A stretch of 64,000 nt of DNA from Pseudomonadota bacterium (GTDB lineage Bacteria; Desulfobacterota; Binatia; Binatales; Binataceae): contig JAJPJA010000039.1 of NCBI GenBank assembly GCA_021324455.1, positions 35,594 to 99,593 of the forward strand, given 5' to 3'. Positions 2,680 through 43,198 of the stretch are shown here, one piece after another. The notes under the pieces are model-generated. The model did not search any database and had not been told where the DNA came from. It saw only the letters and a program-made list of their open reading frames with translations. Positions within the stretch are counted from its first letter, which is position 1, and the number at the start of each line of letters is the position of its first letter. A program made the translations under genes and the position numbers.

Positions 2680-2700
2680 GCTTTATTACATTGCCTGAGC
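2663..2700. repeat. 19-bp tandem direct repeat (TTTATTACATTCCCTGAGC / TTTATTACATTGCCTGAGC) at a convergent gene junction
   Basis: Two adjacent copies at 2663-2681 and 2682-2700 with one mismatch. Copy 1 carries the last codons and TGA of the + strand phosphatase gene; copy 2 carries the stop (TTA = TAA on the minus strand) and last codons of the minus-strand oxidase gene. Confidence 0.7.
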
Positions 2701-5556: not shown

Positions 5557-5586
5557 GGCGGTTTATTATCCCCCTGTCAGGGGGAG

Positions 5587-19805: not shown

Positions 19806-21434
19806 CTACGCCCGGAAGATGAAGCTGACCTCGCCCAGGCGGACTTCGCTGCCGGGCGCCAGCGGCACCGACCCGTGAACCGGCTGGTCATTGAGAAAGG
19901 TGCCGTTGGTCGAGTTGAGGTCGACCAGCTGATAGGCTCCGTTGCGCCGCTGGATCCGGGCATGCGTGCGCGAAACGCTGGCGTGCGGTACCACGAGGTC
20001 GTTTTCGGTGCCGCGGCCCAATGAGATTTCGTCCTTCAAAAGGCTGTACTCCGAGGGCAGCGGCGCCACCGGATTGACCGTGATCAGCTTGGGCTGGCCG
20101 CCCGGCGCCGTCGCGGCCGCCGCCGGCGTCCTTGAAGGCGGCGGGGCGGGGCGCGCTGCCGTGCTCTGCTGCTGGCGGAATATCGGTGCGCGCGGCGCGG
20201 GCTGATTGTACGCCTCGAGGATCGCCTTGACTTCTTCCGCCGGGGGACCGAGACCCGCGCGCGACAATGCCAACAGCGCCAGAATCGCAATCAGCGGAAT
20301 CGCCGCGTTCCACCATTGAAAGGAAAGCTGGCTCAACCCGGTGCCCGATTGGTTCGCGGTTGCGGCTTCGCCCTCTTCGGGAACATTGATGCGCGCGCCG
20401 CTGATGCCGCGCACCTCGTAGCCCGTTTCGGCGTCGGCGGTCTGCCCCTCGTAATCGATCTTCAACTCGACCTTGCGCGAAGTGCCGTCTTCGATCGGCC
20501 GCGGTGTGCGATAGGTCAGCGAATATTGCGTCGCGATCGAATGGCCGATCTCGCGCACCAACTCGGAGAAGCGTCCTTCCTCGGTGACGATATTGTAGGA
20601 ACGGCCGTGAGTCGCGCTGACCAGCAGCGCGTAGTCGGGCGCGATAAACGGCGGCGGCACGACCGCGTACAGAGTCAGGCCGTTTTTCTTGAACATTGCC
20701 GCCACCTGGTCCGCCGTCAGATCGGTGACGTCCTTGTCCTTGTCCGGATGATGGTCCCAGAACGCCTGGTCGTGCTGTGTATGCGCCGAACCGTCGCCCG
20801 CATGATGATCGGGCGCGTCGCTGACCAGGATTACGATGCCCTGCGCTTCGGGACGGAATGGAAAGGTCGAGGCGTAAGCCAGCGCGTCAAGCTGATCTTC
20901 AGGGATATCGCCCCCGCCGCCGGCATGCAGCGAGCCGACCCATTGGGTGAATTCCTGCACGTTGGAAGTCATTTTCTTGTGGTAGGGGCAATTGCAGTCG
21001 GACGCCGCGGAAACGACGTAATCCTCGAAGGTGACCAGTCCCAGCCGATAGTCGCGGTTGTTGCGCGCCAGGTCCTCGGCGAAGCTGATGACGTTCTGCT
21101 TGACCGCGTCGATATAGGGCTGCATCGATTCGGTGACGTCAAGCACGAAGACGATATCCACCGGACGTCCCTGGCCCTGGCCGCGGAAGTCGAGGATCCT
21201 GGCGGGCTTGCCGTCCTCGTAGACCTTTACGTTATCGACGCGCAGATTGCCCACCGGGGCGCCGTTCTGGTCGGTCAGACCGAAATCGATCTGGACGCCG
21301 CCGTCGGTATCGAAATGCTCGAGGCTGGGATTGCCCACCGAAAGTTGCATCGCGGCGCCGGCGGGGCGGGCGGCAAGCGCCGCCAACAACGCCAGCAGGC
21401 CTGCGAGCACAACCGTGCGGCTGCATGAATTCAT
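19806..21434 (-). CDS. signal-peptide / von Willebrand factor A domain / TM helix / Pro-rich linker / FHA domain protein
   Basis: Signal peptide. vWA MIDAS motif VFVLDVTESM. TM segment WWNAAIPLIAILALLALS. The C-terminal FHA shows LGRGTENDLVVPHASVSRTHARIQ ... NSTNGTFLN. Confidence 0.8.
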   Translation of the reverse strand: MNSCSRTVVLAGLLALLAALAARPAGAAMQLSVGNPSLEHFDTDGGVQIDFGLTDQNGAPVGNLRVDNVKVYEDGKPARILDFRGQGQGRPVDIVFVLDVTESMQPYIDAVKQNVISFAEDLARNNRDYRLGLVTFEDYVVSAASDCNCPYHKKMTSNVQEFTQWVGSLHAGGGGDIPEDQLDALAYASTFPFRPEAQGIVILVSDAPDHHAGDGSAHTQHDQAFWDHHPDKDKDVTDLTADQVAAMFKKNGLTLYAVVPPPFIAPDYALLVSATHGRSYNIVTEEGRFSELVREIGHSIATQYSLTYRTPRPIEDGTSRKVELKIDYEGQTADAETGYEVRGISGARINVPEEGEAATANQSGTGLSQLSFQWWNAAIPLIAILALLALSRAGLGPPAEEVKAILEAYNQPAPRAPIFRQQQSTAARPAPPPSRTPAAAATAPGGQPKLITVNPVAPLPSEYSLLKDEISLGRGTENDLVVPHASVSRTHARIQRRNGAYQLVDLNSTNGTFLNDQPVHGSVPLAPGSEVRLGEVSFIFRA

Positions 21435-21589
21435 CGTGCTTTTGATTGTGAAAGCCCAGCTACCACCTAGTCAATATCCTGGCAGCCCGCGGTGGATGCG
21501 CGCGGGCGCGTTTCCCGCCGCCTGCTTGCCTTCGCTCCTGCGGTAAGTTATCCAAGGACCAACCTCAATTTTGCACTTATGGTCGCCGA

Positions 21590-27229: not shown

Positions 27230-29995
<2,766 letters not shown>

Positions 29996-30188: not shown

Positions 30189-31304
30189 TCAGCTCAGGTT
30201 CATGTTGAACAATCGATCGCAGTTATGGCTGATGATCTTGTTCTTAATCGGCTCGGGCACGTCGCTGAAGATGTCGGCGATCACTTCGCGCGACTTGGGC
30301 CAGGTGGTCGCGCTATGCGGATAATCGGACGCCCACATGTAGTTGTCCTCGCCGAAAAATCGCGTGACCCGCGGTCCGATCGGATCGATCTCGAAGGTAA
30401 AGAACACCTGCCGCCGCATGTACTCCGACGGCAGATGCGCCAGCTTGTTGTCCGCCATCGGAGCGAACTTCTTGAACCGCCGGTCGAGCTGCCAGACAAA
30501 ATACGGCACCCATCCCGCGCCCAATTCGACCGAAACCACCTTCAAATTGGGATAACGCTCGAGCACGCCGCCGAACACCAGGCTGCACAGCGTTTCCTGG
30601 ATCTCGTGGACGAAATGCAGACTGGCAAAGGTGAGGAATTCGGGACTGCCGTCGATTTTGGCCGCGCGCTTTTTGTCCTTGGCGGTGATCTCATGCATCG
30701 TGATCACCATCCCATGGTCCTGGGCGGCGGCGAAGAAGGGATCATAGATGCGGCTGTGGTAGGGACGATCGGCGGGCGGACCCGACCAGACCATCGCGCC
30801 TTTCAGCCCCAATTTGGCTGCGCGCTCGACTTCCTTGACCCCCTCGGCGACATTTTCCAGTGAGATCAGTGCGACCGGAAACAGGCGCTTGGGCGCATGC
30901 GAGGCGAACTCCGCCATCCAATCGTTGTAGATGCGGAAGCAGGCCAGCTGCAGTTCGGCGTCATCCAAACCGAAGAGCGAAAAGCCCAGCGACGGGTAGA
31001 GCACTTCGGCGGCGACGCCGTCGGTCTCCATGTCCCTGACCCGCGCCTGGGGGTCCCAGGCGCCGGGCCGCGCCGCCTCATACCCCTTGCTCATCATCTC
31101 CTTCAGTTCCTTGCCCTCGGCGCCCAGGGCATAAAAGGCCGCCACCTGCATCGGGGGAACGCCCGGAGCTTCGAACATCGGTCCCGCGCCGGGCTTGTCG
31201 ACCACGCGCGGCGCGCGGTCGCGAAAGCGCTTATCCAGACGTTCTTCCCAAAGCCTGGGAGGCTCGACGATATGACCGTCAGAGGAAATGATTGGCACGC
31301 TCAT
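30189..31304 (-). CDS. amidohydrolase-2 (PF04909, ACMSD/LigW-like) family protein
   Basis: N-terminal ISSDGHIVEP and a C-terminal WASDYPH metal-binding motif. 371 aa. Confidence 0.8.
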   Translation of the reverse strand: MSVPIISSDGHIVEPPRLWEERLDKRFRDRAPRVVDKPGAGPMFEAPGVPPMQVAAFYALGAEGKELKEMMSKGYEAARPGAWDPQARVRDMETDGVAAEVLYPSLGFSLFGLDDAELQLACFRIYNDWMAEFASHAPKRLFPVALISLENVAEGVKEVERAAKLGLKGAMVWSGPPADRPYHSRIYDPFFAAAQDHGMVITMHEITAKDKKRAAKIDGSPEFLTFASLHFVHEIQETLCSLVFGGVLERYPNLKVVSVELGAGWVPYFVWQLDRRFKKFAPMADNKLAHLPSEYMRRQVFFTFEIDPIGPRVTRFFGEDNYMWASDYPHSATTWPKSREVIADIFSDVPEPIKNKIISHNCDRLFNMNLS

Positions 31305-31491
31305 CGTGGTGTTCGTCCTTCAATAAAATTTGCCGCCGGTGTCCGGCCGCGGATTGTCAGGGTGCTGCGCCTCAATTAGCGTTAGATCGTAAAGCGGCCA
31401 TTGTAAAGTCCGCAGTCTCTCCATTCGGAACTTTGTATTGCGGCGCGCAGCCGCTTGCCCATCGGCACCCGAATGGAGCACAAGTAAAGCC

Positions 31492-32751
31492 ATGGCACGG
31501 ATTGAAGATTACTACGATCCCTGGAGCCCCGATTTTGTCCGCGATCCGCTCAGCCGCTACCGTCCGCTGCTGTCGCGGCCCCCGATACTGGTCGAAGGCG
31601 GCAGGCTGCCGCCCTCGCTCAGCCAGGGCGCCTTGCCGGGCAAGCCGATCGTGCTGATCGCGCGCTACGACGACGTGCTGACCGTGATGCGCGACGCCGC
31701 GCGGTTTTCCAATCATCGGCCGCCGCGGCCGGGCGAGCAAAAGGCCGGCGAGGGCGGGCTTAAGTTTTACGGCGCCGCCAACCTGCTCTTCAGCGATCCG
31801 CCGGTGCATACGCGGATGCGCCGGCTGGTTACCCGTGCGTTCAGTCCGCGGCGCATCCGCGACATGACCCCGTCGATCAAATCGCTGGTGATAAAAATGA
31901 TCGATGCCGTTGCGGAAAAAGGCAGCTTCGAAGTGATGAAGGATTTGGCGTGGCCGCTGCCGATGGCGGTGATTGCGGACATGCTCGGAGTGACGCGCGA
32001 ATTTTACCACGACTTCCATCGCTGGGCCGTGCTCATCATCACCGCCGACAGCCTCAGCGCCAACGGTTCCTATTCCAAGGAGACCCGCGAAGCGGTCGGC
32101 AAGCTGCGCAATTACGTCAGCGGAGAAATTGAAAAGCGCCGCAATTCAAAGGCCGAGGATGTAATCAGCGTTTTGGTCCGCGCCCAGGAGGAAGGCGACG
32201 CCTTGACCAGCGGTGAAGTGCTGGCCTTCGTGTTGCTGCTGCTGCTGGCCGGCAGCGAGACCACCACCAGTTTGATCGGCAATACGATGCAGCTGCTGGC
32301 GGAGCATCCGGAAGAATTCGAGCAGGTGCGCAGGAACCCGCAGTTGTGGACGCGCGCCATCGAGGAAATCCTGCGCTTCGAACCCCCGGTGCACGCCGTC
32401 GACCGCTTCGCCACGCGCGATACCGAGGTGGGCGGCACGGAAATTCCGCAGGGTTCGCTGCTGCACGTGCTGCTGGGTGCGGCCAACTTCGACCCGGCCA
32501 AATTTCCCGATCCGGAACGCTTCGACCTTACCCGCGACCCCAACGACCACGTGTCGTTCGGCGAGGGGATACATTTCTGTTTGGGCGCCGGACTGTCGCG
32601 GCTGGAAGGAGAAATCCTGTTCCCGTACCTGTTCGAGCGTTTCCCGCGCCTGCGTCCCGCCGTGCCCGGCTGCGATGGACGGCTGTACAACGGCGAGACG
32701 TCGTACTTCATGCCGCGGCGGGTCGGGTCGCTGCCGATGCTGATCGATTGA
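31492..32751 (+). CDS. cytochrome P450
   Basis: Heme-binding loop FGEGIHFCLGAGLS, I-helix LLLAGSETTTS, and ExxR (EEILRFEPP). Start at the ATG at 31492. Confidence 0.88.
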   Translation: MARIEDYYDPWSPDFVRDPLSRYRPLLSRPPILVEGGRLPPSLSQGALPGKPIVLIARYDDVLTVMRDAARFSNHRPPRPGEQKAGEGGLKFYGAANLLFSDPPVHTRMRRLVTRAFSPRRIRDMTPSIKSLVIKMIDAVAEKGSFEVMKDLAWPLPMAVIADMLGVTREFYHDFHRWAVLIITADSLSANGSYSKETREAVGKLRNYVSGEIEKRRNSKAEDVISVLVRAQEEGDALTSGEVLAFVLLLLLAGSETTTSLIGNTMQLLAEHPEEFEQVRRNPQLWTRAIEEILRFEPPVHAVDRFATRDTEVGGTEIPQGSLLHVLLGAANFDPAKFPDPERFDLTRDPNDHVSFGEGIHFCLGAGLSRLEGEILFPYLFERFPRLRPAVPGCDGRLYNGETSYFMPRRVGSLPMLID

Positions 32752-32792
32752 TTCGGCGGCGCAGCTTGCGCGGATCGCAGAATAGCGCCGAG

Positions 32793-33218
32793 CTAACGCA
32801 TCATCTGAAAGAACTCGACCGGAACTCCGTCCGGATCCTCGACATAGAAGCTGCGGAACCTGGGCACCACTTCCTCGATGTCGGAAATGATCTTCGCCCA
32901 CGGCATCGATTGCACTTCGCGGAATTTCGCCTCGACATCTTCAACCGCGAACGACATGTGCGGGCTGCCGGCATTGTTGTGATGAATATGCTGAGGCGCG
33001 CCGCCGCCGGCGGTGTATTCGAGCAACTGCAGCTTGAACCCACCCGCGCGCACGTAAGCTCCCTTGATGGCGGCGGGCGGGTTTCTGGTCAGCCGGGCAA
33101 ACCCGCCGTTTTGCAGTTCGAACGTGGCTTCCACCGTCATCCCCACCACTTCGCGATAAAATCTGAGCGAGGCATCCAGGTTGGTGACGGTCAGACCGAC
33201 ATGATCGAGCGCAGCCAT
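32793..33218 (-). CDS. VOC family (glyoxalase / bleomycin-resistance / dioxygenase fold) protein
   Basis: LDHVGLTVTNLDASLRFYREVVGM is the classic VOC N-terminus. The ATG at 33218 is preceded by AGGAGG. The ORF-track N-terminal extension was rejected. Confidence 0.75.
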   Translation of the reverse strand: MAALDHVGLTVTNLDASLRFYREVVGMTVEATFELQNGGFARLTRNPPAAIKGAYVRAGGFKLQLLEYTAGGGAPQHIHHNNAGSPHMSFAVEDVEAKFREVQSMPWAKIISDIEEVVPRFRSFYVEDPDGVPVEFFQMMR

Positions 33219-33325
33219 TTTCAACCTCCTGCCGGGGTGCGTTTCGGGCCACCCTAGCCGCAGAGCGCAAAGAAGAAAACGTCCGGCGTGGACTGTCGGC
33301 GCGCCATCGCTTAACTTGCTCATCC

Positions 33326-34135
33326 GTGGACGCAATCGAAAAGGCCGCCAGGCGCGCGGCGCGGGCCGCCGGCGCCGTTCATATCGCTCGATTCGGCAAG
33401 ACCACATTCAAGGGCAAAAGCAGCTTTTTGGACCTGGTGACCGAGGCCGACCAGGAAGCGGAGGCGGCGGTGGTCGGGATTCTGCATCGCGCCTTCCCCG
33501 ATCACGCGATTCTCTCCGAGGAAGGCGGCGGTATCGACCAGCCCAGTCAACATCGATGGATCATCGATCCGCTCGACGGCACCACCAATTTCGCCCACGC
33601 CTATCCCCATTGCTGCGTCTCCATCGGCTATGAACGGCGCGGACGGCTGGAATTGGGCGTCATTTTGGACGCGCTGCGCGGTGAGCTGTTCCTCGCGCGC
33701 CGGGGCCGGGGCGCCACGCTCAACGGCAAGCCAATCGCCGTCAGCCGTGCCGCCACGCTCGACACCGCTTTGCTGTGCACCGGCTTTCCCTACGATCGCT
33801 CCGCGCGCCGGCGCTTTTACCTGACCTTCTGGGAGGCGATGATGACCCGCGTGCACGGCGTGCGCCGCACCGGCAGCGCCGCGCTGGATCTGGCCTGGGT
33901 GGCGTGCGGCAGGATGGACGGGTTCTGGGAGTTCGGGCTCAAGCCGTGGGACGTCGCGGCGGGCACGCTGATAGTGCAGGAGGCCGGCGGCAGAGTCACC
34001 AATATGGACGGAACCAGATTGAGCCTGACCGCGGGACGAATAGCGGCGACCAATCGCCGCCTGCACAAGCAGTTGCTGGACGTCATCGCGGAAAACTTCG
34101 CGGAGGCCGAACGCCGCGAAGCTTCCGGGATGTAG
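33326..34135 (+). CDS. inositol monophosphatase family protein (SuhB/CysQ/HisN-like)
   Basis: Motifs DPLDGTTNFAH and WDVAAG, GTG start. Confidence 0.85.
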   Translation: MDAIEKAARRAARAAGAVHIARFGKTTFKGKSSFLDLVTEADQEAEAAVVGILHRAFPDHAILSEEGGGIDQPSQHRWIIDPLDGTTNFAHAYPHCCVSIGYERRGRLELGVILDALRGELFLARRGRGATLNGKPIAVSRAATLDTALLCTGFPYDRSARRRFYLTFWEAMMTRVHGVRRTGSAALDLAWVACGRMDGFWEFGLKPWDVAAGTLIVQEAGGRVTNMDGTRLSLTAGRIAATNRRLHKQLLDVIAENFAEAERREASGM

Positions 34136-34209
34136 CGGCCCCCGCCAGCGTTTCTGCCCGCAAAGCGGCGGGGGAAACTCAAGCGGCAATCGATCCGGCG
34201 GCCGCTCAG

Positions 34210-35679
34210 TCAGCGCGGCTGGCTGTGCGCCAAAACCGATCGCGCCGCCGCCTCCACCGCGGTGCCTTTGAAAAAATCCGGATTCGCTTCAGCCTTGGCG
34301 CGCACCGGGTTGATTAGGACGAAATCGCGGAAATCCTCCTCGCTGATGCATCCGCGCTCCACCATCTCCCACGCCTCCGACGCGGCCAGGCGCATGTCGG
34401 GCAGATCGAAATGGCCGAGATCGGAGCCGTAAATCGCGCCCAGCCGCGCTGCGAAAGGATTTTTGCGCGGGTCGAAGGCAACCGCGGTCATGCGGTCGTC
34501 GCCTTCGCATCCGAAAAAGAAATTCGGCACGAAACGGTCGCGGATGTCTTCGCGCGTGCGCACCGCGCAGCGCGCGAACTCGTCGAGGTCGGCGGGATCC
34601 TGCACCACGCCCCACAAAAGCTGCGAGCGGTCGTCCTGGCGCGCCGCGATTTCGGCGCGGTAATCGCTTCCGTACTCCCTGAACAGACGGCGCATCAGAT
34701 CCTCGTCCAGAGCGCGGGGGTCGTAGTTTGACACCATTGCGGCGTTATGTTTTTCCCAATGACCGGCGAGATCGCACAGCAGGCCCGCAGCCCAGGCCGC
34801 GCCGCCTTCGAGAAAAGCGAAACGGATTTGAGGAAAGCGGCGCGTCACTCCGCCCAAAAACAGCGACTTGCAAATCGCCTCAGCCGACGCGGCGAAGTGT
34901 CCGATATGGTTGTAGACGAAATTGGAGATGGAGTTGCGCATCCCCAGGCCCATCGTGCCGCTATGGAAGGTCGGCGCCACCTTCAGCTCAACGCATCTGG
35001 CCCACACCGGATCGTAGTCGTATTCACTGTCCAGCGCGTAGGTGTCGAACCAATGCGCATAGCGGGCGGCGTCGGGACTTTTCCTGGCCGCGGCGGGAAT
35101 CGTTCGCACCACGAAAGCCGGCATCAGCACGACCTTCAATCCGAGCACGCGGACCGCGTAATCCAGTTCCTCCAGAGCTTCGGCCGGCGTATGCATCGGA
35201 ATCACCGCGGCCGGAGTCAGACGGTCGGCGTACGCGCGGAAAATGTCGGCATGCAGCCTGTTCAGCGCGCGGCATGAGGCACGGCGCAACTCCTCATCGC
35301 CCAGGCTGGGCAGCACGATGCCGAAACTCGGATAGATGATACTGAAGTCGATACCCATTTCGGGCAGCCGCTGATGCAGCAGCCGGGGCAGCGAACTGGT
35401 CGCCCGGTCCAGCGTGTTGCGCGTCGGATGCGCCGCCCACAGCGGACGCGCCAGCCGGGCGTCGCGGCGCTCCTGCGGAGTCATCCGGTACCATCGAAAC
35501 GCGATCGGGCTGTTGGGCATCGACTTGAGCCGATCCAGCATCCGGCTGCCGCCCACTTCGCGCAGGTAATCGAACAAAGCCGGTTCGAATTCAGCGGTAT
35601 GGCCGTCGGAATCGATTATCGGATGATTGAGACGGGCGCGAATCGCGGCTGATTTGGAAATCGTTGCTGAGGTCGGCAT
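34210..35679 (-). CDS. amidohydrolase-2-like protein, long form (489 aa), paralog A
   Basis: N-terminal IIDSDGHTAEFEP, internal HSGTMGLG, C-terminal GSDLGHFD. Start placed at the ATG at 35679 (MPTSATISKSAAIRARL). Confidence 0.7.
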   Translation of the reverse strand: MPTSATISKSAAIRARLNHPIIDSDGHTAEFEPALFDYLREVGGSRMLDRLKSMPNSPIAFRWYRMTPQERRDARLARPLWAAHPTRNTLDRATSSLPRLLHQRLPEMGIDFSIIYPSFGIVLPSLGDEELRRASCRALNRLHADIFRAYADRLTPAAVIPMHTPAEALEELDYAVRVLGLKVVLMPAFVVRTIPAAARKSPDAARYAHWFDTYALDSEYDYDPVWARCVELKVAPTFHSGTMGLGMRNSISNFVYNHIGHFAASAEAICKSLFLGGVTRRFPQIRFAFLEGGAAWAAGLLCDLAGHWEKHNAAMVSNYDPRALDEDLMRRLFREYGSDYRAEIAARQDDRSQLLWGVVQDPADLDEFARCAVRTREDIRDRFVPNFFFGCEGDDRMTAVAFDPRKNPFAARLGAIYGSDLGHFDLPDMRLAASEAWEMVERGCISEEDFRDFVLINPVRAKAEANPDFFKGTAVEAAARSVLAHSQPR

Positions 35680-35753
35680 CGCAATCTCACCTGCGGTTTG
35701 TGCACGGTACAAAGCATCACGGGCCGGCGCCGGCCGTACCCGCGCAAGCAGCG

Positions 35754-36158
35754 TCAATGGCCGCGGAATTTTCTCACCTGCAGCAGGATGTCCATAGTTC
35801 GAGTGCCGCCCGATTGCGACAGGCGCGGGTCGGAATCGGAGATGCATTGGATGAAGACATTGGGACTGGTGAAGCCGAACCGGGACCATCCGCCGCGCGC
35901 AATGACGCTGTGCTTGAGCCAGTCCTGAACCATCCCGGTGCGATCCGATTCGCATTCGGAGCGGCTGGCGAAGTCACCGCGCGCGGTGAAGCGGACCGGC
36001 CCCGCCATCGAGCCTTTGACCATGCTGCTGGCGGCTTTGGGCTGGCTGATGACGTTGACGTCCGCCGCCATCAGGTACCAGCTCGCGGCGTGGCTGTTTT
36101 GCGCAAGGACAAGCAGCGCCGCGAGCGCGAATTGGATATGGAGGAGGTTGTTCTTCAC
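35754..36158 (-). CDS. small secreted protein (134 aa)
   Basis: GTG start with a GGAGGTGGAG RBS. Signal peptide MKNNLLHIQFALAALLVLAQNSHAA. It sits co-directionally between the two long amidohydrolase paralogs. Confidence 0.45.
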   Translation of the reverse strand: MKNNLLHIQFALAALLVLAQNSHAASWYLMAADVNVISQPKAASSMVKGSMAGPVRFTARGDFASRSECESDRTGMVQDWLKHSVIARGGWSRFGFTSPNVFIQCISDSDPRLSQSGGTRTMDILLQVRKFRGH

Positions 36159-36364
36159 TTGAAATTTTTCTCCACCTCCGGCAGAGAAACTCTCGATTCC
36201 GGGGCTGAGACGGCATCCGCCCGGTGAGGCCGGCGTCCATGACGGTCGTCAACCCGGGCCGCGGCGGGAGAAGGCCGGCCGAATCGCCCGCTCCACTGCC
36301 GGAAGGCTTTGCGGTTGAGAAAACCGCCCTCCCGGGCGAATCGGCCAAATCACAATCCTCCGGC

Positions 36365-37789
36365 TCAACCGCCGGCCATCAGGTCGCTCGCCTGTTTCTC
36401 CACTACGGTGCCATTGAAGAAATCCGGATTCATCCCGGCGAACAGCCTGACCGGGTTGGTGAAAGTCAGGTCGCACAGCTGCTCTTCGGTGAGCACGCCG
36501 TGTTCGACCAGTTCCCAGGATTCCTCCAGCACTTCGGTCATGTCCTTGACGTCGAAATGTCCGATGTCGGAGCCCAGGATCGCGTTGAGCCGGGCTCCGA
36601 ACGGATTGACGCGGCTGTTGAACGCCGCCGCATTCATCGGGTCCTCGGCTTCGCATCCGAAATAGAAGTTGGGCACGAACAGGTCGCGGATATCCTCGGC
36701 GCGATTGATTGCGCAGCGCCAGAAGTCGTCCAGCTGCGGCGGCGGCTCGACATGCTTGCTGATAACCGGGTTGTGCCGCACGGTTTGCCTGATCAATTCG
36801 TCGCCGTAGCGCTCGGCCAGATTGCGAAACAGATTTTCGTCCAGATTGGCCGGATCGACCCGATCCAGCACGTTGATGTTGCGCGTGTTCCAATGCCGGA
36901 TCAGGTCGCTGTACAGGCTGCAGGCCCATCCGGCGCCGCCTTCCAGGAAGGCGAATTTCAGCCTGGGAAAGCGCCGCGTCACGCCGCCCAGAAACAGCGC
37001 CTTGCACAGGGTGTCGCCGGCGGTCGCGAAGTGGCCGATATGGTTGTACACCCAGTTCGACGTCGATGCGCGAAAGCCCAGGCCCTGCGTTGAGTTGTGG
37101 AAGGTGGGAATCAGCCCCAGCTCAATGCATTTGGCCCATACCGGATCGTAATCGTAGTCGCTGTCCAACCCCAGCGGATCGCGCCAGATGCGGTCCGCTT
37201 TTCCCTCGCCCGCCGGAACATGGCGGTTGACCAGCCCGGCCAGCATCACCACCTTCAGCCCCAATGACTTGACGTGCTCGAGCTCCTCGATCGCCTCCTG
37301 CGGCGTATGCACCGGAACTCCGGCAACCGGCGTCAATCGATCGGAATAATCGCGGAACAACTCGGCGGCATATTCGTTGAGCGCGCGCGTGCCGCCGCGG
37401 CGCAGCTCCTCGTCGCGCATGAACGGCACCATCGTCATCACCGAGGTCGGAAACAGCACGCAGAAATCCAGTCCCATCTCGGGCAGCCGCTCATACAGCA
37501 GTTTGGGCAGCATCGCGGTGGCCCGGTCCAGCGTGTTTTTGGTAGGAAACGGCCACCATGCCGGCTGGGCGAGCTTGTTTTTCTGGCGCTGTTCGAAACT
37601 ACTGCCGGCGTTGGGGAGGGTGACCCGCGTGATGCGCTCGTAGCGCGCCGCGGACTGATCTCCCACCACGCGCCGCACGTATTCCATCACGGCGGGTTCG
37701 TACTCGATCCAATGCCCGTCCGAGTCGATCACGGGATGGCTCAAACGGGCATGAATAGCGGCAGACTTGCTGGTTGCGGTGGCGGCCAT
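36365..37789 (-). CDS. amidohydrolase-2-like protein, long form (474 aa), paralog B
   Basis: Collinear with paralog A along its whole length (MAATATSKSAAIHARLSHPVIDSDGHWIEYEP ... GSDIGHFD). Confidence 0.75.
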   Translation of the reverse strand: MAATATSKSAAIHARLSHPVIDSDGHWIEYEPAVMEYVRRVVGDQSAARYERITRVTLPNAGSSFEQRQKNKLAQPAWWPFPTKNTLDRATAMLPKLLYERLPEMGLDFCVLFPTSVMTMVPFMRDEELRRGGTRALNEYAAELFRDYSDRLTPVAGVPVHTPQEAIEELEHVKSLGLKVVMLAGLVNRHVPAGEGKADRIWRDPLGLDSDYDYDPVWAKCIELGLIPTFHNSTQGLGFRASTSNWVYNHIGHFATAGDTLCKALFLGGVTRRFPRLKFAFLEGGAGWACSLYSDLIRHWNTRNINVLDRVDPANLDENLFRNLAERYGDELIRQTVRHNPVISKHVEPPPQLDDFWRCAINRAEDIRDLFVPNFYFGCEAEDPMNAAAFNSRVNPFGARLNAILGSDIGHFDVKDMTEVLEESWELVEHGVLTEEQLCDLTFTNPVRLFAGMNPDFFNGTVVEKQASDLMAGG

Positions 37790-37836
37790 TTTGCTCTCTC
37801 TCCTCTCAGCCCGGCCTTCTACAATCTGTAAGGATT

Positions 37837-40253
37837 TTATTGCGTGCCGGCGTAAACCCGGGCCGCGCCCTGCGCCTGCCGGCGCATCGCGGCCGCGCCC
37901 TTGTCATTCTTCAATACGAACACAACCTTATCCACAACGCCGTTAAAACGGAAAGGACACCGGTAGCTTTCGTCAACCGGCGTTCCGGTGTCGATTCCGA
38001 CGTCGAATGTATCATGATCGGAAAAGACGAACGGCACGGTGCGATCGATCGCGCCTTCGCCGGTCTTGTGGCCGTTGATGAAGACCGCGCCGCGTCCTGT
38101 GTTGTCGCCGGTTCTGGTGAACTCGAACCGCAGCGTCGATTTGCCCGGGCGCAGCCGCTCGCGCGAGGCGACCCTGTAGCGCTCATCGCCCAGGAAATTG
38201 TAAACGAAGGTGGGACGACCGCCGCGGACGAAAAACGCGTAGCCGCCAAAGCGCCCGCCGTCGGTCACGATCATCCCGTCGCCGCCGCCGGGCGGGACCT
38301 CCACCTCGGCGGTGATGCTGTAGGAGCGGTTCTTTACGTCGGGTGCGAGGATTTCCGGCACCCGGAAAGTCCCGGCGGTGTAGGTGTACTCGGCGCGCGG
38401 CGCCGGCAGCCACGGCTTGGCCGGCGCGATGCGGCCCAGCCGATCGTCGAGCGGCAGGACGTTGTTGCGCTGCGCCTCCTTCAGCCACAGCGCCTCCAGT
38501 TCCTTCACCTTGTCCGGATATTGCGCCGACAGGTCATGGATCTCGGCGAAGTCGTCATCGACGTGATACAGCTCCCAATGGTCGTTATCGAACGGCACCG
38601 AACCGGCGGAATCCCACGGCGGACGTCCGTGAAAAACGACCGCTTTCCAGCCGTCGCGCCAGATGCCGCGATTGCCCACCATTTCATAATACTGCATATG
38701 GCGCGCGGCGGGCGCCGACGGATCGCCTAAAGTTCGGGCAAAGCTGATACCGTCCAGCGGCCGCTGCGGCACACCGCCGATTACGGAGGGCGGTTTGATG
38801 CCGGCGACCTCCAGAATCGTCGGCGCAATATCGGTAACGTGGCAGAACTGATGGCGGATCGCCCCCGCATCCTTTATCAATCTGGGATAGTAAACGATCA
38901 ACGGATCGCGCACGCCGCCGTAGTGCACGGTCTGCTTGTAATACTTCAGCGGCGTGTTGCTGGCTGGGCCCATCCCACCGGATAATGGTTGTAGGTCAGG
39001 GGAGAGCCGAATTCGCCGATCCTTGCCACGTCGCGCTCAAGCGGCTCGGGCACGCGGTTGAAGATGCGGAATTCGTTGCTGGTGCCGATCAGACCCCCTT
39101 CCGCGCTGGCGCCGTTGTCCGACATCACGATTATCAGCGTGTTGTCCATCTGGCCCATCGCGGAGAGCGCCGCCACGATGCGCCCGAACTGGTAGTCGGC
39201 ATGCTCCAGGTAGCCGGCGTACACCTCCATCTCGCGCGCGAACAGCCGCCGCTCGGACGGCGTCAGCGCCGCCCACGGCTTGACGCCCGGCGCCAGCGGG
39301 GCAAGCTCGGTGTTGGCCGGTACGATGCCTATTTCCTTCTGGCGGGTGAGTATCTCCTTGCGGATCTGATCCCAGCCTTTGTCGAAACGTCCCTTGTAAT
39401 GATCGATGAACTCGCGGGGCGCCTGATGCGGCGCGTGGCAGGCGGCGGGGGCGAAATAGAGCAGGAAGGGCCGCGCGGGTTCGATCGCTTTAAGCCGCCG
39501 CATCTGCTCGATCGCCTGGTCCGCGAGGATCGCGGTCAGATGATCCTGCGCCCGATTCCATTGCGCCGGCCAATCGCGCAGTATCGCGCTGGTATTTTCG
39601 AACAGCTCCGGATTCCACTGGCTGGCCTCGCCGCCCTGAAAGCCGAAGAAATAGTCGAAACCCCAGATGCCGGTGGGCCAGTACTTGAACGGTCCCGCCG
39701 CCGAAGTGAACTCGAGCGGCGTGTTGTGCCATTTGCCGATCGCGTAGGTCGCGTAGCCGTTCAGCTTCAGGATCGTGGGCAGCGTGCCGGCGTCGTCGGG
39801 CAGCAGGCCGTCGTAGCCCGGATAGCCGGTGGCGGCCTCGATGATGGTGCCGAAGCCGACCGCGTGATGGTTGCGGCCGGTGAGCAGCGCCGCGCGCGTG
39901 GGCGAGCATAGCGCCGTGGTGGTGAAATTGTTGTAACGCAAGCCCCGCGCCGCAATCCGATCGATATTGGGAGTGTGAATCGGACCGCCATAGCTGCCCA
40001 GATTGGCGAAGCCCACGTCATCGAGCAGAAAAATCACGACATTGGGGGCGCCCGGGCGGGCTGTGGGCAGCGCCGGCCACGCGGGTTGCGACTGCTTGTA
40101 GGTGAAGCCGATAACGCCGTTAAATTTGCCGTCGCTGTAGGTTCTGACGGCAACAATCGCCGCTGCCGCAACCGGCACCATCAGCCCGGCCATCGCCAGC
40201 CACAATACCAGGTGCAGTCGCGGATTGGGCCGGAAAGAATCGGGAGCTTTCAT
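37837..40253 (-). pseudogene. arylsulfatase (large AtsA-type), interrupted by a frameshift
   Basis: The N-terminal ORF at 38946-40253 has a signal peptide and the sulfatase signature CSPTRAALLTGRNHH. The C-terminal ORF at 37837-38973 continues the sulfatase fold in another frame. The two ORFs overlap by 28 nt. The expected junction VGWAxxSNTPLKYYKQ is broken as VGWAQPATRR* versus MGPASNTPLKYYKQ, which is consistent with a 1-nt loss near 38958-38963. Confidence 0.7.
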
Positions 40254-40388
40254 CGATTACCTCCCATTATTACGCGGCTATTGCTGCTTATAGGTGTCCT
40301 CCCCTCTATCACGGCGCGCTTGAGAATTGCGAACCGCGGCGGGCGGATTGAGCCCGCCGCCAGCGCCGCGCATCCGGCGGCGCGCGCT

Positions 40389-42059
40389 TCAGGTCGGACG
40401 CAGAACGCGGCCGGGCAGAACTCCACGCGGCTGACCGTGATCGTACAGCACCTGGCCGTTGACCACGGTGTAATGCACGCCGGTCGCCGCCACCGTCAGG
40501 CGCATCCCGCCGCCCGGCAGGTCGAAGGCGGTTCGCGGACCTTTCTCGCCCACCGTGTCGTAGTCGAAAATAGCGATATCCGCGGCCATGCCCGGCGCCA
40601 GCCGTCCGCGGTCGCCGAGCCCGAAAAAGTCCGCCGGCTCCGATGTCATGCGCTTGACCGCGCGCTCCAGCGAGAACAGCTTTTCCTCGCGCACCCAATG
40701 CCCCACCATGTAGGTGCAGTAGGCGGCGCCGCAGAACATATCGACGTGCGCGCCGCCGTCGCCCAAACCGACCAACGTGCGATCGTCGGCCAGCAGCCCG
40801 CTCAGGTAGCGCTCGAAATCCTCGAAGATGCAGAACCTGGTCTGCAGCTTGTCCGCGATGGCGAGGTCCAAAAACGCGTCCACCGGCGCCTTGCCCGTTT
40901 CGCCCGCCACCTGGAGAATGCCTTTGCCCTCGAAATGGCGCAGCGCGGGATCGCTGACCTCGGCCACCGACATCGCCTTCCAGTTGCCGGAAAAGAAAAC
41001 TTCGGGTTTCTCGAGCCCCTGGGCAAAGGCCGCGCGGAACGCCGGATCGGACAGGATTTCGATCTGCTTCTCCAGCGGCTGATGGAATACCTGTTTCCAT
41101 TCGGCGCGCGGCGCGAACACGAACGGGTCGCGCAGCGCGAACAGGATCTTGTTGCCTTTGCTGACGATCTGGGGAATGCCTCCGCGCCGGATCAGCGGTT
41201 CGGCTTTCTTCAGCGTCGCCTCATGCGCCGTCAGATCGGTGATGCGCGGCAACAGCGCCGTCCAGGTCACCGGGCGTCCGCTATGCTCCAGCAGCAGGTC
41301 GACCAGTTCGTATTCCTGATCCGACAGCAGCCCCAAATCCTGCGTCAGCGCGATTTCGACCACGCCCCTGCCGCTGTGCTTCAGCACGTTAGCGTAGGCG
41401 GCGAGTTCGTCGCGGTCGGCCAGGCGGCAGGCGAGCGGGCGGCCCTTGTAGCCCAGATGCTGGCGGAAGACGGTGGTGGAAAAACCCAATGCGCCGGCGC
41501 CGATCGCTTCGCGCAGCAGCCCCGCGATGCGCTCGCGCTCATCGGGACGCGCCGCGCGCTGGCTCGATTCCTCGCCCAGCACGTAATGGCGCAGCGGCGT
41601 GAGCGGCACCAGAAAGCCGACGTTGATGCCCAGGCCGCGGTTTTGCGCCGCCTGCATGTACTGCGGAAAGCTTTCCCAATCCCAGGTGATACCGCGGGTC
41701 AGGACGTCAAACGGGATGCCTTCGACCGTGACCAGATCGCGCGTGACCATCTCATGCGCCTGCGCGCGGCAGGGCGCGATCCCCACGCCGCAGTTGCCGA
41801 TCACGACGCTGGTCACGCCATGCTCCGATGAGCAGGTGAGCAGGGGATCCCAGCAGATTTGCGCGTCGTAATGCGTATGCGGGTCGATAAAGCCGGGCGC
41901 CGCGATCAGGCCGGCGGCGTCGATCTCCTCGCGCGCTTTGCCCCCGAGGTTGCCGAGCGCGGCAATCCTGCCGCCGGCGACGCCGATATCGCCCTTAAAA
42001 CCGGGCGCTCCGGTGCCGTCAACGATCGTGGCTTTCCTGATGATCAGGTCGTAGTCCAT
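40389..42059 (-). CDS. N-acyl-D-amino-acid deacylase (D-aminoacylase) family amidohydrolase
   Basis: MDYDLIIRKATIVDGTGAPGFKGDIGVAGGRIAALG ... FIDPHTHYD is the typical D-aminoacylase N-terminus. 556 aa from the ATG at 42059; the upstream track extension was rejected. Confidence 0.8.
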   Translation of the reverse strand: MDYDLIIRKATIVDGTGAPGFKGDIGVAGGRIAALGNLGGKAREEIDAAGLIAAPGFIDPHTHYDAQICWDPLLTCSSEHGVTSVVIGNCGVGIAPCRAQAHEMVTRDLVTVEGIPFDVLTRGITWDWESFPQYMQAAQNRGLGINVGFLVPLTPLRHYVLGEESSQRAARPDERERIAGLLREAIGAGALGFSTTVFRQHLGYKGRPLACRLADRDELAAYANVLKHSGRGVVEIALTQDLGLLSDQEYELVDLLLEHSGRPVTWTALLPRITDLTAHEATLKKAEPLIRRGGIPQIVSKGNKILFALRDPFVFAPRAEWKQVFHQPLEKQIEILSDPAFRAAFAQGLEKPEVFFSGNWKAMSVAEVSDPALRHFEGKGILQVAGETGKAPVDAFLDLAIADKLQTRFCIFEDFERYLSGLLADDRTLVGLGDGGAHVDMFCGAAYCTYMVGHWVREEKLFSLERAVKRMTSEPADFFGLGDRGRLAPGMAADIAIFDYDTVGEKGPRTAFDLPGGGMRLTVAATGVHYTVVNGQVLYDHGQPRGVLPGRVLRPT

Positions 42060-42088
42060 GGTCCTTCCTTTTCGCCCGCCCTTTCCGC

Positions 42089-43198
42089 TTACGGCCGGTA
42101 AAAGGCCAGCGCGCTTTCCGCCATCACGATGCGGCGCATATCGGGTCGCAGCCGCTGTGCAATCTGTTGCGGCGCGCCGGGAAAGAAGCCGTCGGGATGG
42201 GGATAATCGGTGGCCCACAGGATATGCTCGGGTCCCAGGAAATCCGCCGCGAACTGCACCGACGCCTCCACCGGCTCGAATGACACCCAGCATTGACGGC
42301 GGAAGTAGTCGGAGGGCTTCATCCTGATTTCCGGATAGAACAGATGGCTGTCGGAGAAATGGCGGTCCATCCGATCCAGCCACGCCGGCATCCATCCGCC
42401 GCCCGCCTCCAGAAAGCCGAAGCGCAGTTTGGGAAAGCGCTCGCACACGCCGCCCCAGATTACGCACAGCGACGCCAGCATCATTTCCATCGTATGCGAG
42501 ACGATATGCTTGGCGCCGCGATTGGCGAAGCGGTCGGCGCCGATCGCCGGATTGCCGCCCAGTCCCTCATGGATTCCGATCGCGAAATCAAGCTCCTGCG
42601 CCGCGGCCCACAACGGGTCGTAGGCGCGGTCATCCAACTGCCGGTTGTTGTAGCGGTTGGGACGCACGAATCCCGATCGCATCCCCAACTCCTTGCGCGC
42701 AAAGCGCATCTCCTCGATCGCGTATTCCACCGACTGCATCGGCAGCATCGCCACCCCGAACAGCCGGTCCGGGTAGGGACTGCAATAGTCGGCCAGCCAT
42801 CGGTTGTAGGCGCGAAAGCAGGCAGCGGCGAATTTGGGATCTTCCACCGCGCCCATCCACAGGCCCATCGTGGGGTAGAGGAACACCGCGTCGATACCGT
42901 CGAGGTCGAGATCGGCGATGCGCGCGTGCGGATCGAACCCGCCCTTGCGCCCCTCGGCGTACTTCATGTCCTTGACCGTGTCGGCCCCCCCGCGCACCGC
43001 GTCGATCGCGCCCGCGGAGCCGATTCCGTCAAAGCCGGGAAAGGCGCGGCCGATAAACCACATCATCTCCTTGCCGCGCTCATCGATGAAGTATCTCGGC
43101 GCCTGATCGCGGTAAGCGGGATCGATATATCGCTGCCACAGATCGACCGGTTCGAGCACGTGGCCGTCGGAATCGATGACGTTGTAAGTGCGGCCCAT
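42089..43198 (-). CDS. amidohydrolase-2 family protein
   Basis: N-terminal IDSDGHVLEP and C-terminal WATDYPHPD, 369 aa. Paralogous to the gene at 30189-31304. Confidence 0.8.
   Translation of the reverse strand: MGRTYNVIDSDGHVLEPVDLWQRYIDPAYRDQAPRYFIDERGKEMMWFIGRAFPGFDGIGSAGAIDAVRGGADTVKDMKYAEGRKGGFDPHARIADLDLDGIDAVFLYPTMGLWMGAVEDPKFAAACFRAYNRWLADYCSPYPDRLFGVAMLPMQSVEYAIEEMRFARKELGMRSGFVRPNRYNNRQLDDRAYDPLWAAAQELDFAIGIHEGLGGNPAIGADRFANRGAKHIVSHTMEMMLASLCVIWGGVCERFPKLRFGFLEAGGGWMPAWLDRMDRHFSDSHLFYPEIRMKPSDYFRRQCWVSFEPVEASVQFAADFLGPEHILWATDYPHPDGFFPGAPQQIAQRLRPDMRRIVMAESALAFYRP

Follow-up and report, generated by a model that had tools for sequence, protein, structure and literature searches.

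Probable ARO-type oxygenases encoded by four PF04909 genes on a Binataceae contig, including a putative long-form variant of the published signature

Four PF04909 genes at one locus

We analysed a window of 64,000 nucleotides (the 64-kb window; contig JAJPJA010000039.1, positions 35,594 to 99,593) from a bacterium of the Binataceae (Binatia); all positions below count from the first nucleotide of this window. It contains four genes, numbered ARO1 to ARO4 in coordinate order, for which a sequence-only reading had proposed non-oxidative decarboxylase or hydratase chemistry. Our data suggest that the four genes instead probably belong to the D-x-H branch of PF04909 and encode amidohydrolase-related dinuclear oxygenases (AROs). 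These enzymes, which include PtmU3, DitZ, AibH2 and SfbO, are O2-dependent Fe2 or Mn/Fe hydroxylases with a PF04909 (amidohydrolase_2) TIM-barrel fold (PMC10811679, PMC13154177). The gene map of the locus is based on Pfam and start-codon analysis, and the four genes are as follows:

30189-31304, minus strand: ARO1, short form, 371 residues (PF04909, 105.7 bits)
34210-35679, minus strand: ARO2, long form, 489 residues (PF04909, 53.5 bits)
36365-37789, minus strand: ARO3, long form, 474 residues (PF04909, 47.2 bits)
42089-43198, minus strand: ARO4, short form, 369 residues (PF04909, 100.4 bits)

The coordinates and family given for these genes by the sequence-only reading were borne out: all four products exceed the PF04909 gathering cut-off (26.4 bits), and profile searches place none of them in an unrelated family. 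A phmmer search with the four proteins against all six-frame open reading frames (ORFs) of the window recovered only the queries and no fifth copy, and NCBIfam held no model for any of them. Amino acid identity is 34% between ARO1 and ARO4, 51% between ARO2 and ARO3, and 26–31% between short and long forms. Because these values span only 26–51%, the genes appear to be old paralogues rather than recent duplicates. Recent tandem duplication, considered as an origin of the four genes, is ruled out by the same identities.

Motifs common to the four proteins

Two hallmarks distinguish AROs. One is a D-x-H motif in the first β-strand, whose Asp and His are both ligands of metal 1 (PMC13154177); the other is a D-x-P-H-x-D/E loop after β8, from which come a bridging Asp, the metal 2 His and an acid (PMC13154177). 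This acid binds metal 2 or holds its water, is second-sphere in most AROs (PMC13154177), and is conserved in binuclear members only (PMC7782822). Neither hallmark has been reported in any characterised PF04909 hydrolase or decarboxylase (PMC13154177, section 7). We took ligand numbering from PMC7782822 and checked it against our own alignment, whose register is confirmed because PtmU3 E313 coincides with the Fe-binding Glu313 named in that paper.

All four proteins carry D-G-H at the place of the canonical H-x-H pair. The N-termini read PIISSDGHIVEP in ARO1 (core IISSDGHIVEP), PIIDSDGHTAEFEP in ARO2 (core IIDSDGHTAEFEP), PVIDSDGHWIEYEP in ARO3 (core VIDSDGHWIEYEP) and NVIDSDGHVLEP in ARO4 (core VIDSDGHVLEP). 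The N-terminal D-S-D-G-H described earlier for all four therefore needs a small correction, since ARO1 reads S-S-D-G-H. The suggestion that this segment lies at the metal site agrees with our results: the D-x-H pairs (D9/H11, D25/H27, D24/H26 and D11/H13 in ARO1 to ARO4) align with PtmU3 D10/H12 and fall on strand 21–27 (β1) of a structural model of ARO3. The His after β5 and the Glu after β6 are likewise present in each protein (H204/E260, H239/E291, H231/E283 and H210/E264 in ARO1 to ARO4), in columns that are invariant or nearly so in both the short and the long family.

Towards the C-terminus, the proteins read WASDYPHSA (ARO1), WATDYPHPD (ARO4), GSDLGHFD (ARO2) and GSDIGHFD (ARO3). The GSDxGHFD motif had been described correctly for the long forms; that of the short forms is better written WA[ST]DYPH, and these motifs do not end the proteins but sit ~35–65 residues before their ends. 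The motif set of the decarboxylases and hydratases (N-terminal motifs such as H-x-H, with no β8-loop His and acid pair) was found in none of the four, all of which have D-x-H together with the Asp and His of the β8 loop. D-x-H thus sets the four proteins apart from ACMSD/LigW-type enzymes, as had been supposed.

Short forms and the case for oxygenases

Among solved structures, the short forms most closely resemble hydroxylases. ARO4 matched PtmU3 at E 1.1e-49, DitZ at 3.7e-31 and ACMSD at 1.9e-23; ARO1 matched PtmU3 at 8.4e-54, DitZ at 5.5e-36 and its best decarboxylase at 3.5e-19. When ARO4 and ARO1 were aligned with PtmU3, DitZ and 30 homologues, seven columns (D, H, H, E, D, P and H) proved invariant, except that one sequence, truncated at its N-terminus, departs at the β1 D and H. 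ARO4 has ligand positions D11, H13, H210, E264, D331, H334 and D336, and its loop (D331-Y-P-H334-P-D336) contains the published D-x-P-H-x-D/E pattern in full.

The second-sphere residues of ARO4 (γ1 Gly, γ2 Tyr and γ4 Pro) agree with the diiron row of Table 1 of PMC13154177, which lists a hydrophilic γ1, a hydrophobic γ2 (Phe/Tyr) and a non-aromatic γ4. So do those of ARO1 (G, Y and S), though both fits count Gly as hydrophilic on the octanol scale, a reading of Gly that is not stated in that paper. The low-potential, Mn-using AROs are marked by a γ1 that is hydrophobic and by a neighbouring gene for a small Rieske ferredoxin (PMC13154177). Neither marker was found here, as γ1 is Gly in all four proteins and none of the coding-like ORFs of the 64-kb window has a Rieske or small ferredoxin motif; Rieske ferredoxin genes are largely absent around diiron-type AROs (PMC13154177). 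ARO4 therefore has every feature by which an ARO can be recognised at the sequence level and is a candidate canonical high-potential (diiron-type) ARO, and the short forms together appear, by sequence, to be new members of this known enzyme kind.

These comparisons bear directly on the chemistry first proposed, in which all four proteins would be mononuclear, non-oxidative PF04909 decarboxylases or hydratases of the ACMSD, LigW, IDCase, γ-resorcylate decarboxylase or LigJ type acting on aromatic or heterocyclic acids. We regard this as very improbable. Membership in PF04909 is compatible with it, as are the matches to LigW, ACMSD and dihydroxybenzoate decarboxylases, which are weaker yet significant, but the similarity of the short forms to PtmU3 and DitZ, both hydroxylases, lies about 30 orders of magnitude above that to decarboxylases. 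An orthologue of ARO1 is encoded near a LigB-type extradiol dioxygenase, an aldehyde dehydrogenase and HpaB, which is an aromatic-catabolism context; against this, the full seven-position dinuclear ligand set occurs in ARO2, ARO3 and ARO4, no characterised PF04909 decarboxylase or hydrolase has the D-x-H or β8-loop motif that is the mark of AROs (PMC13154177), and the terminal acid is a feature reported from binuclear members (PMC7782822).

Long forms ARO2 and ARO3

The long forms retain all seven ligand positions: D25, H27, H239, E291, D420, H423 and D425 in ARO2 (loop DLGHFD), and D24, H26, H231, E283, D408, H411 and D413 in ARO3 (loop DIGHFD). The Asp, His and Asp of their loops align with PtmU3 D308/H311/E313. 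Proteins of this long family are ~470–500 residues in length, with sequence extra to the short forms near ARO3 residues 40–95 and 300–373.

We sampled conservation in 110 diverse long-family representatives (mean column identity 31%). The metal 1 residues were nearly invariant (D24 in 104/106, H26 in 106/106, H231 in 110/110 and E283 in 108/110), as were those of the β8 loop (D408 in 101/106, H411 in 105/108 and D413 in 100/110). Since D, H, H, E, D, H and D are kept in 100–110 of the 110 representatives, the D-S-D-G-H motif is not a product of chance. The Pro of the published motif is replaced by Gly (90), Ser (12) or Ala (4) and never occurs, while the residue after the loop His (γ4) is Trp (65), Phe (34) or Tyr (4). 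The published ARO pattern would overlook the long family, because D-x-P-H-x-[DE] was absent from the whole length of all 110 sequences; judged by its motifs, the family is a variant outside the published ARO signature. It also has near-invariant residues of its own that the short forms lack (N249, H250, G252, E380 and D383).

Profile and structure comparisons link the long forms to the same enzymes. With hhalign, the long-family profile and the short/PtmU3 profile matched at a probability of 99.9% (E 1.4e-33), with every ligand position paired. An AlphaFold2 model of ARO3 built from the 110-representative alignment (pLDDT 95.7) replaced an earlier one from a 25-sequence alignment (pLDDT 57), which we discarded. 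It has D24/H26 on β1, F113/P114 at the end of β2, H231 after β5, E283 after β6 and D408/H411/D413 after β8, so that the modelled ligands lie at the C-terminal ends of β1, β5, β6 and β8. A Foldseek search of the PDB with this model returned chains of PtmU3, DitZ, SfbO, TruffO and AibH1H2 as its 12 best matches, and profile-to-PDB ranking placed PtmU3, DitZ and 4DZI first.

The long family is large. It comprises at least ~8000 clusters at 90% identity, with all those listed annotated as amidohydrolase or TIM-barrel hydrolase, and 934 clusters (50% identity) at E <= 1e-30 emerged when 1.84 billion representatives were searched exhaustively with a profile.

From the retained ligands and the nearest folds we infer, with somewhat less assurance than for the four genes as a group, that ARO2 and ARO3 would hold a two-metal site and act as oxygenases. 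They might instead combine the ARO ligand set with a non-redox activity (hydrolysis or hydration) at one or two metals, in which case the Pro-to-Gly change and N249, H250, G252, E380 and D383 would mark that other activity. The lack of the strict motif in every representative and the family's own residues, foreign to the short forms, fit such a change of function. We nonetheless hold it to be unlikely, as the seven ligand positions are strongly constrained and the nearest solved sequences and folds of the long form are all oxygenases.

ARO1, a terminal-acid variant

ARO1 keeps six of the ligand-equivalent positions (D9, H11, H204, E260, D327 and H330) and then has Ala332 in place of the acid. 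The same DYPHSA loop is found in seven relatives (55–92% identity), while the other 113 of the 120 homologues listed read DFPH[T/A/S/Q]D. As all seven relatives share it, Ala332 is a stable trait of a small subclade.

The resulting pattern is that of AibH1, which keeps D, H, H, E, D and H without the acid, binds one zinc and is the non-catalytic partner of AibH2 (PMC7782822). ARO1 could thus be an AibH1-like mononuclear, non-catalytic subunit that partners ARO2, ARO4 or an ARO encoded elsewhere, though on the sequence comparisons made here we treat this as a tentative possibility. Besides the six ligands and the conserved Ala332 at the position of the Asp missing from AibH1, it gains from a related locus, L085 (8001-12040), where an ARO1 orthologue (78% identical) is followed directly by two PF04909 genes on its strand, amid LigB, aldehyde dehydrogenase, HpaB, Amidohydro_3 and P450 genes. 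In our window, by contrast, ARO1 adjoins a P450 and an aconitase gene and no ARO gene. Further, the terminal Asp is second-sphere in most AROs (PMC13154177), so its loss need not abolish metal 2, and ARO1 is far nearer to PtmU3, which works without a partner, than to the AibH1H2 chains (186.5 versus 47.7 bits).

The two genes behind the L085 orthologue differ in motif: the first has N-x-H and no β8-loop motif, and the second has D-x-H and a D-A-Y-H-H-D loop. The Pro of the published ARO motif is therefore variable in several lineages.

Neighbouring genes and transcriptional context

The other genes of the locus are as follows:

27230-29995, minus strand: aconitase
31438-32751, plus strand: cytochrome P450, divergent from ARO1 (PF00067, E 2.1e-36)
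32793-33407, minus strand: VOC/glyoxalase-fold protein (PF00903, E 1.3e-14)
33326-34135, plus strand: inositol-monophosphatase-family protein (PF00459, E 3.5e-70)
35754-36158, minus strand: small ORF of 134 residues with a signal-peptide-like N-terminus
37837-40253, minus strand: type I sulfatase in two ORFs, 38946-40253 and 37837-38973 (PF00884, PF16347)
40389-42059, minus strand: Amidohydro_3 (D-aminoacylase-like) hydrolase, 556 residues (PF07969, E 4.3e-36)
43639 onward: methyltransferase, MobA-like protein and MutS

These neighbours (a P450, a VOC protein, an inositol-monophosphatase-family protein, a D-aminoacylase, a frameshifted sulfatase and aconitase) had already been recognised in the sequence-only reading, and a catabolic context remains apt. 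In NCBIfam the P450, VOC and Amidohydro_3 proteins received no specific name, and no specific equivalog exceeded its cut-off for the P450.

Six genes follow one another in the same orientation, separated by ~30–210 bp: ARO4, the Amidohydro_3 gene, the sulfatase, ARO3, the 134-residue ORF and ARO2. This string may be co-transcribed. As a scan for promoters and terminators gave nothing above shuffled controls, operon structure is read here from strand and spacing. The Amidohydro_3 gene starts 30 bp downstream of ARO4, at an ATG (42059) with GGAAGGA upstream that agrees with the orthologue N-terminus, and its position is unchanged in relatives L001–L005.

The sulfatase carries a membrane or signal segment at its N-terminus and contains the formylglycine motif CSPTR. 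Its frameshift corresponds to one missing G near 38965 (a gap relative to L001 and L005), and the gene is uninterrupted (802 residues) in L001–L004; the break could be either a true pseudogene or an assembly error. The 134-residue ORF matched no family in Pfam or NCBIfam, though tblastn found a counterpart (61–62% identical) beside the ARO3 orthologue in L001–L005, so the ORF probably represents a genuine gene tied to ARO3.

Several starts required attention. The listed VOC ORF and the divergently oriented phosphatase gene share ~80 bp at the start of the latter, and because the VOC domain begins only at residue 67, the true start probably lies downstream of 33407. The frame of ARO2 stays open for 92 codons further upstream (to 35955), an extension that is poorly coding and has no counterpart in relatives; homologues support the start at 35679. 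The inositol-monophosphatase-family protein is probably unrelated to the oxygenase genes. Elsewhere in the window, and unrelated to the AROs, are a 958-residue protein with a 4Fe-4S cysteine motif (2689-5562, minus strand) and a 554-residue protein that joins VWA and FHA domains (19806-21470, minus strand).

We scanned all coding-like ORFs of the window for motifs of Rieske, adrenodoxin-type and 3Fe/4Fe ferredoxins. No Rieske or small ferredoxin emerged, and the only matches were the 958-residue Fe-S protein and a chance match in a 347-residue ORF. Since the P450 and the four putative oxygenases would need electron donors and none is encoded within the 64 kb, these partners must be encoded elsewhere.

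Relatives and genomic context of long-form genes

The nearest genomes are metagenome-assembled genomes of Candidatus Binataceae (Binatia), with 84–86% identity in the ARO3 protein. They retain MutS, MobA, ARO4, Amidohydro_3, the sulfatase, ARO3 and the small ORF, and beyond these gene order diverges, with ARO2, the phosphatase, the VOC gene, the P450, ARO1 and aconitase missing from this place. The description of the region as an island was not supported, as only ARO4, Amidohydro_3, the sulfatase and ARO3 of its members stay together here in these relatives. We also rejected a mobile or horizontally acquired island, as GC content is even throughout the window and no mobility genes were seen. 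The proposed lineage-specific expansion fared better at another scale. Although the four genes are too divergent to be a local expansion, the long family is concentrated in Binatia and strongly multiplied there, with several copies per genome (e.g., three loci on CBDEWE010000003.1, and copies on four contigs of one genome bin).

We surveyed the neighbours of long-form genes at 81 non-redundant genome-scan loci. Luciferase-like monooxygenases (32), short-chain dehydrogenases (23) and enoyl-CoA hydratases (15) were commonest, followed by Amidohydro_3 (12), amidase (11), CoA-transferase (10) and the Rieske oxygenase α subunit (7). Within 8 kb of long-form genes at 162 non-redundant genome and metagenome loci, we found short PF04909 genes (28), Amidohydro_3 (16), P450 (10) and sulfatase (5). 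These counts touch the non-redox alternative for ARO2 and ARO3 from both sides: the neighbours are often hydrolases (Amidohydro_3, amidase) and CoA-pathway enzymes, which would suit it, but oxygenases are frequent too, with luciferase-like monooxygenases joined by P450, flavin monooxygenase and Rieske oxygenase genes.

Gene mixes like that of our window recur on unrelated genome and metagenome contigs of lower GC content (L136 2803-14338, L137 7487-13549, L049 1886-7125 and L026 1380-8818). A sulfatase occurs with the long gene in L026, L049 and L136, joined in L026 by a formylglycine-generating enzyme, and further companions on these contigs are VOC, cupin_7, flavin monooxygenase, P450, luciferase-like monooxygenase, short ARO and Amidohydro_3 genes. 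An apparent short ARO in L026 proved to be a formylglycine-generating enzyme. The sulfatase link recurs in three or four independent lineages only. This oxygenase-rich mix hints at the oxidative breakdown of a sulfated, probably hydrophobic compound.

Proposed mechanism and points against it

A working mechanism can be outlined from the literature. Metal 1 would be held by the Asp and His of β1, the His that follows β5 and the bridging Glu that follows β6. The β8 loop (D-x-P-H-x-D/E) would contribute a further bridging residue (Asp), the metal 2 His and the acid, which would either bind metal 2 or hold its water ligand. Once reduced, the Fe(II)2 or Mn/Fe site would react with O2 to hydroxylate a C–H bond of the substrate, with electrons supplied by a separate reductase. 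ARO4 would be the standard diiron-type enzyme. ARO2 and ARO3, which have the seven ligand positions with Gly, Ser or Ala for Pro across their family and an aromatic residue after the His, would most likely bind two metals and act as oxygenases; ARO1 may be a partner subunit with a single metal, or its activity may be a different one. Together with the P450 and VOC proteins, the products of the ARO4-to-ARO2 gene string would probably take part in the oxidative breakdown of a compound that may be sulfated and hydrophobic, and that may or may not be aromatic.

Several observations weigh against this interpretation. The loop departs from the strict published pattern in three of the four proteins: ARO2 and ARO3 have Gly for Pro, with Asp, His and Asp kept, and ARO1 reads D327-Y-P-H330-S-A332. 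The Foldseek margin for the ARO3 model is small, with AROs at 7e-12 to 2e-9 and decarboxylases from ~2e-9 onwards. The second sphere of the long family is mixed, as γ1 Gly and γ2 Tyr/Phe are diiron-like and γ4 Trp/Phe is Mn-like. No reductase partner was found within the 64 kb. Gene content around long-form genes varies widely among genomes, so neighbours guide little on substrate. Finally, a two-metal site in the amidohydrolase superfamily could in principle catalyse hydrolysis instead. Even with these points taken into account, we favour the oxygenase interpretation for all four genes.

The mixed second sphere has its own interest. With their aromatic γ4, ARO2 (G, Y, F) and ARO3 (G, F, F) belong to neither row of Table 1 of PMC13154177, and the published rule cannot assign a metal to the long family because its markers are mixed. 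Since these residues combine the markers of both classes, metal preference and chemistry in the long family may differ from those of the iron-only and the Mn-using class alike. The DYPHSA subclade of ARO1 may similarly be a second, independent AibH1-like mononuclear partner subunit. A more ambitious view joins these two ideas, with the long forms as a large branch of dinuclear oxygenases, centred on the uncultured Binatia class and bearing a D-x-[G/S/A]-H-[W/F]-D loop, comprising thousands of sequences uncounted in the published census, and the ARO1 subclade as an independently derived AibH1-like subunit; we offer it as speculation that is rather doubtful in its entirety.

Significance

AROs are newly recognised C–H-activating enzymes that are annotated as "amidohydrolase" in nearly all genomes, and the PF04909 label alone leads a reader or a pipeline to a decarboxylase or hydratase where O2-dependent hydroxylation is likelier. 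The main point about AROs is already known, having been published in 2019–2026; the leads added here are the uncounted long family and two natural motif variants. The D-x-P-H-x-D/E signature appears too narrow, overlooking a family that has every ligand, so that current estimates of the superfamily and of what Binatia can oxidise are probably too low. Two natural variants bear on metal number and on the choice between Fe and Mn: one has Gly for Pro together with an aromatic γ4, and the other lacks the terminal acid. These leads should be useful for work on metal selection in the ARO fold and on Binatia metabolism, with practical value limited pending a substrate.

Comparison with known systems

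The non-redox members of PF04909 form one group for comparison. ACMSD, LigW, IDCase, γ-resorcylate decarboxylase, LigJ and LigY have the Pfam family and the TIM barrel in common with the window proteins, to which they give weaker but significant matches. They differ in having mononuclear Zn/Mn or no metal, other N-terminal motifs, no loop, and O2-independent chemistry (PMC13154177).

AibH1H2 of Rhodococcus wratislaviensis (6M1W, 8FUL–8FUO) is a Mn/Fe 2-aminoisobutyrate hydroxylase with a mononuclear partner subunit; its fold and its six or seven ligand positions are those of the window proteins. ARO1 resembles AibH1 (no terminal Asp, one metal) at its ligand positions, but its gene has no other ARO gene beside it in the window, unlike aibH1 and aibH2, which are neighbours. 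AibH2, which belongs to the low-potential class, differs in its hydrophobic γ1 and adjacent Rieske ferredoxin gene, neither of which occurs in the window.

DitZ of Rhodococcus rhodochrous (8UYR), a high-potential ARO, is a catabolic diiron diterpenoid hydroxylase and the second-best solved match of all four proteins, with a D-x-H start and a DYPHSD loop. Identity is ~26% to the short forms and 15–18% to the ARO3 model (Foldseek). Its γ3 is Glu (E-C-D-Y-P-H), whereas the window proteins have Ala or Gly. The dit pathway, to which DitZ belongs, also uses P450s.

PtmU3 of Streptomyces platensis (6OMP/6OMQ), a non-haem diiron hydroxylase of platensimycin and platencin biosynthesis and likewise a high-potential ARO, is the closest of these systems. 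It is the best solved match of ARO1 and ARO4 (~32% identity to ARO4) and, by Foldseek and profile comparison, of the long form. PtmU3 serves antibiotic biosynthesis, with a diterpenoid CoA thioester as its substrate, in contrast to the catabolic context of the window. The loop-final Glu of PtmU3 binds metal 2, where ARO4 has Asp and ARO1 Ala, and the long forms have Gly for the loop Pro. In other respects the likeness is extensive: PtmU3 has the corresponding ligand positions (D10, H12, H189, E241, D308, H311 and E313), the S/D-x-D-x-H-x-x-E-P start, a small or hydrophilic γ1 and an aromatic γ2, and, like the system described here, it has no partner subunit and no adjacent Rieske ferredoxin.

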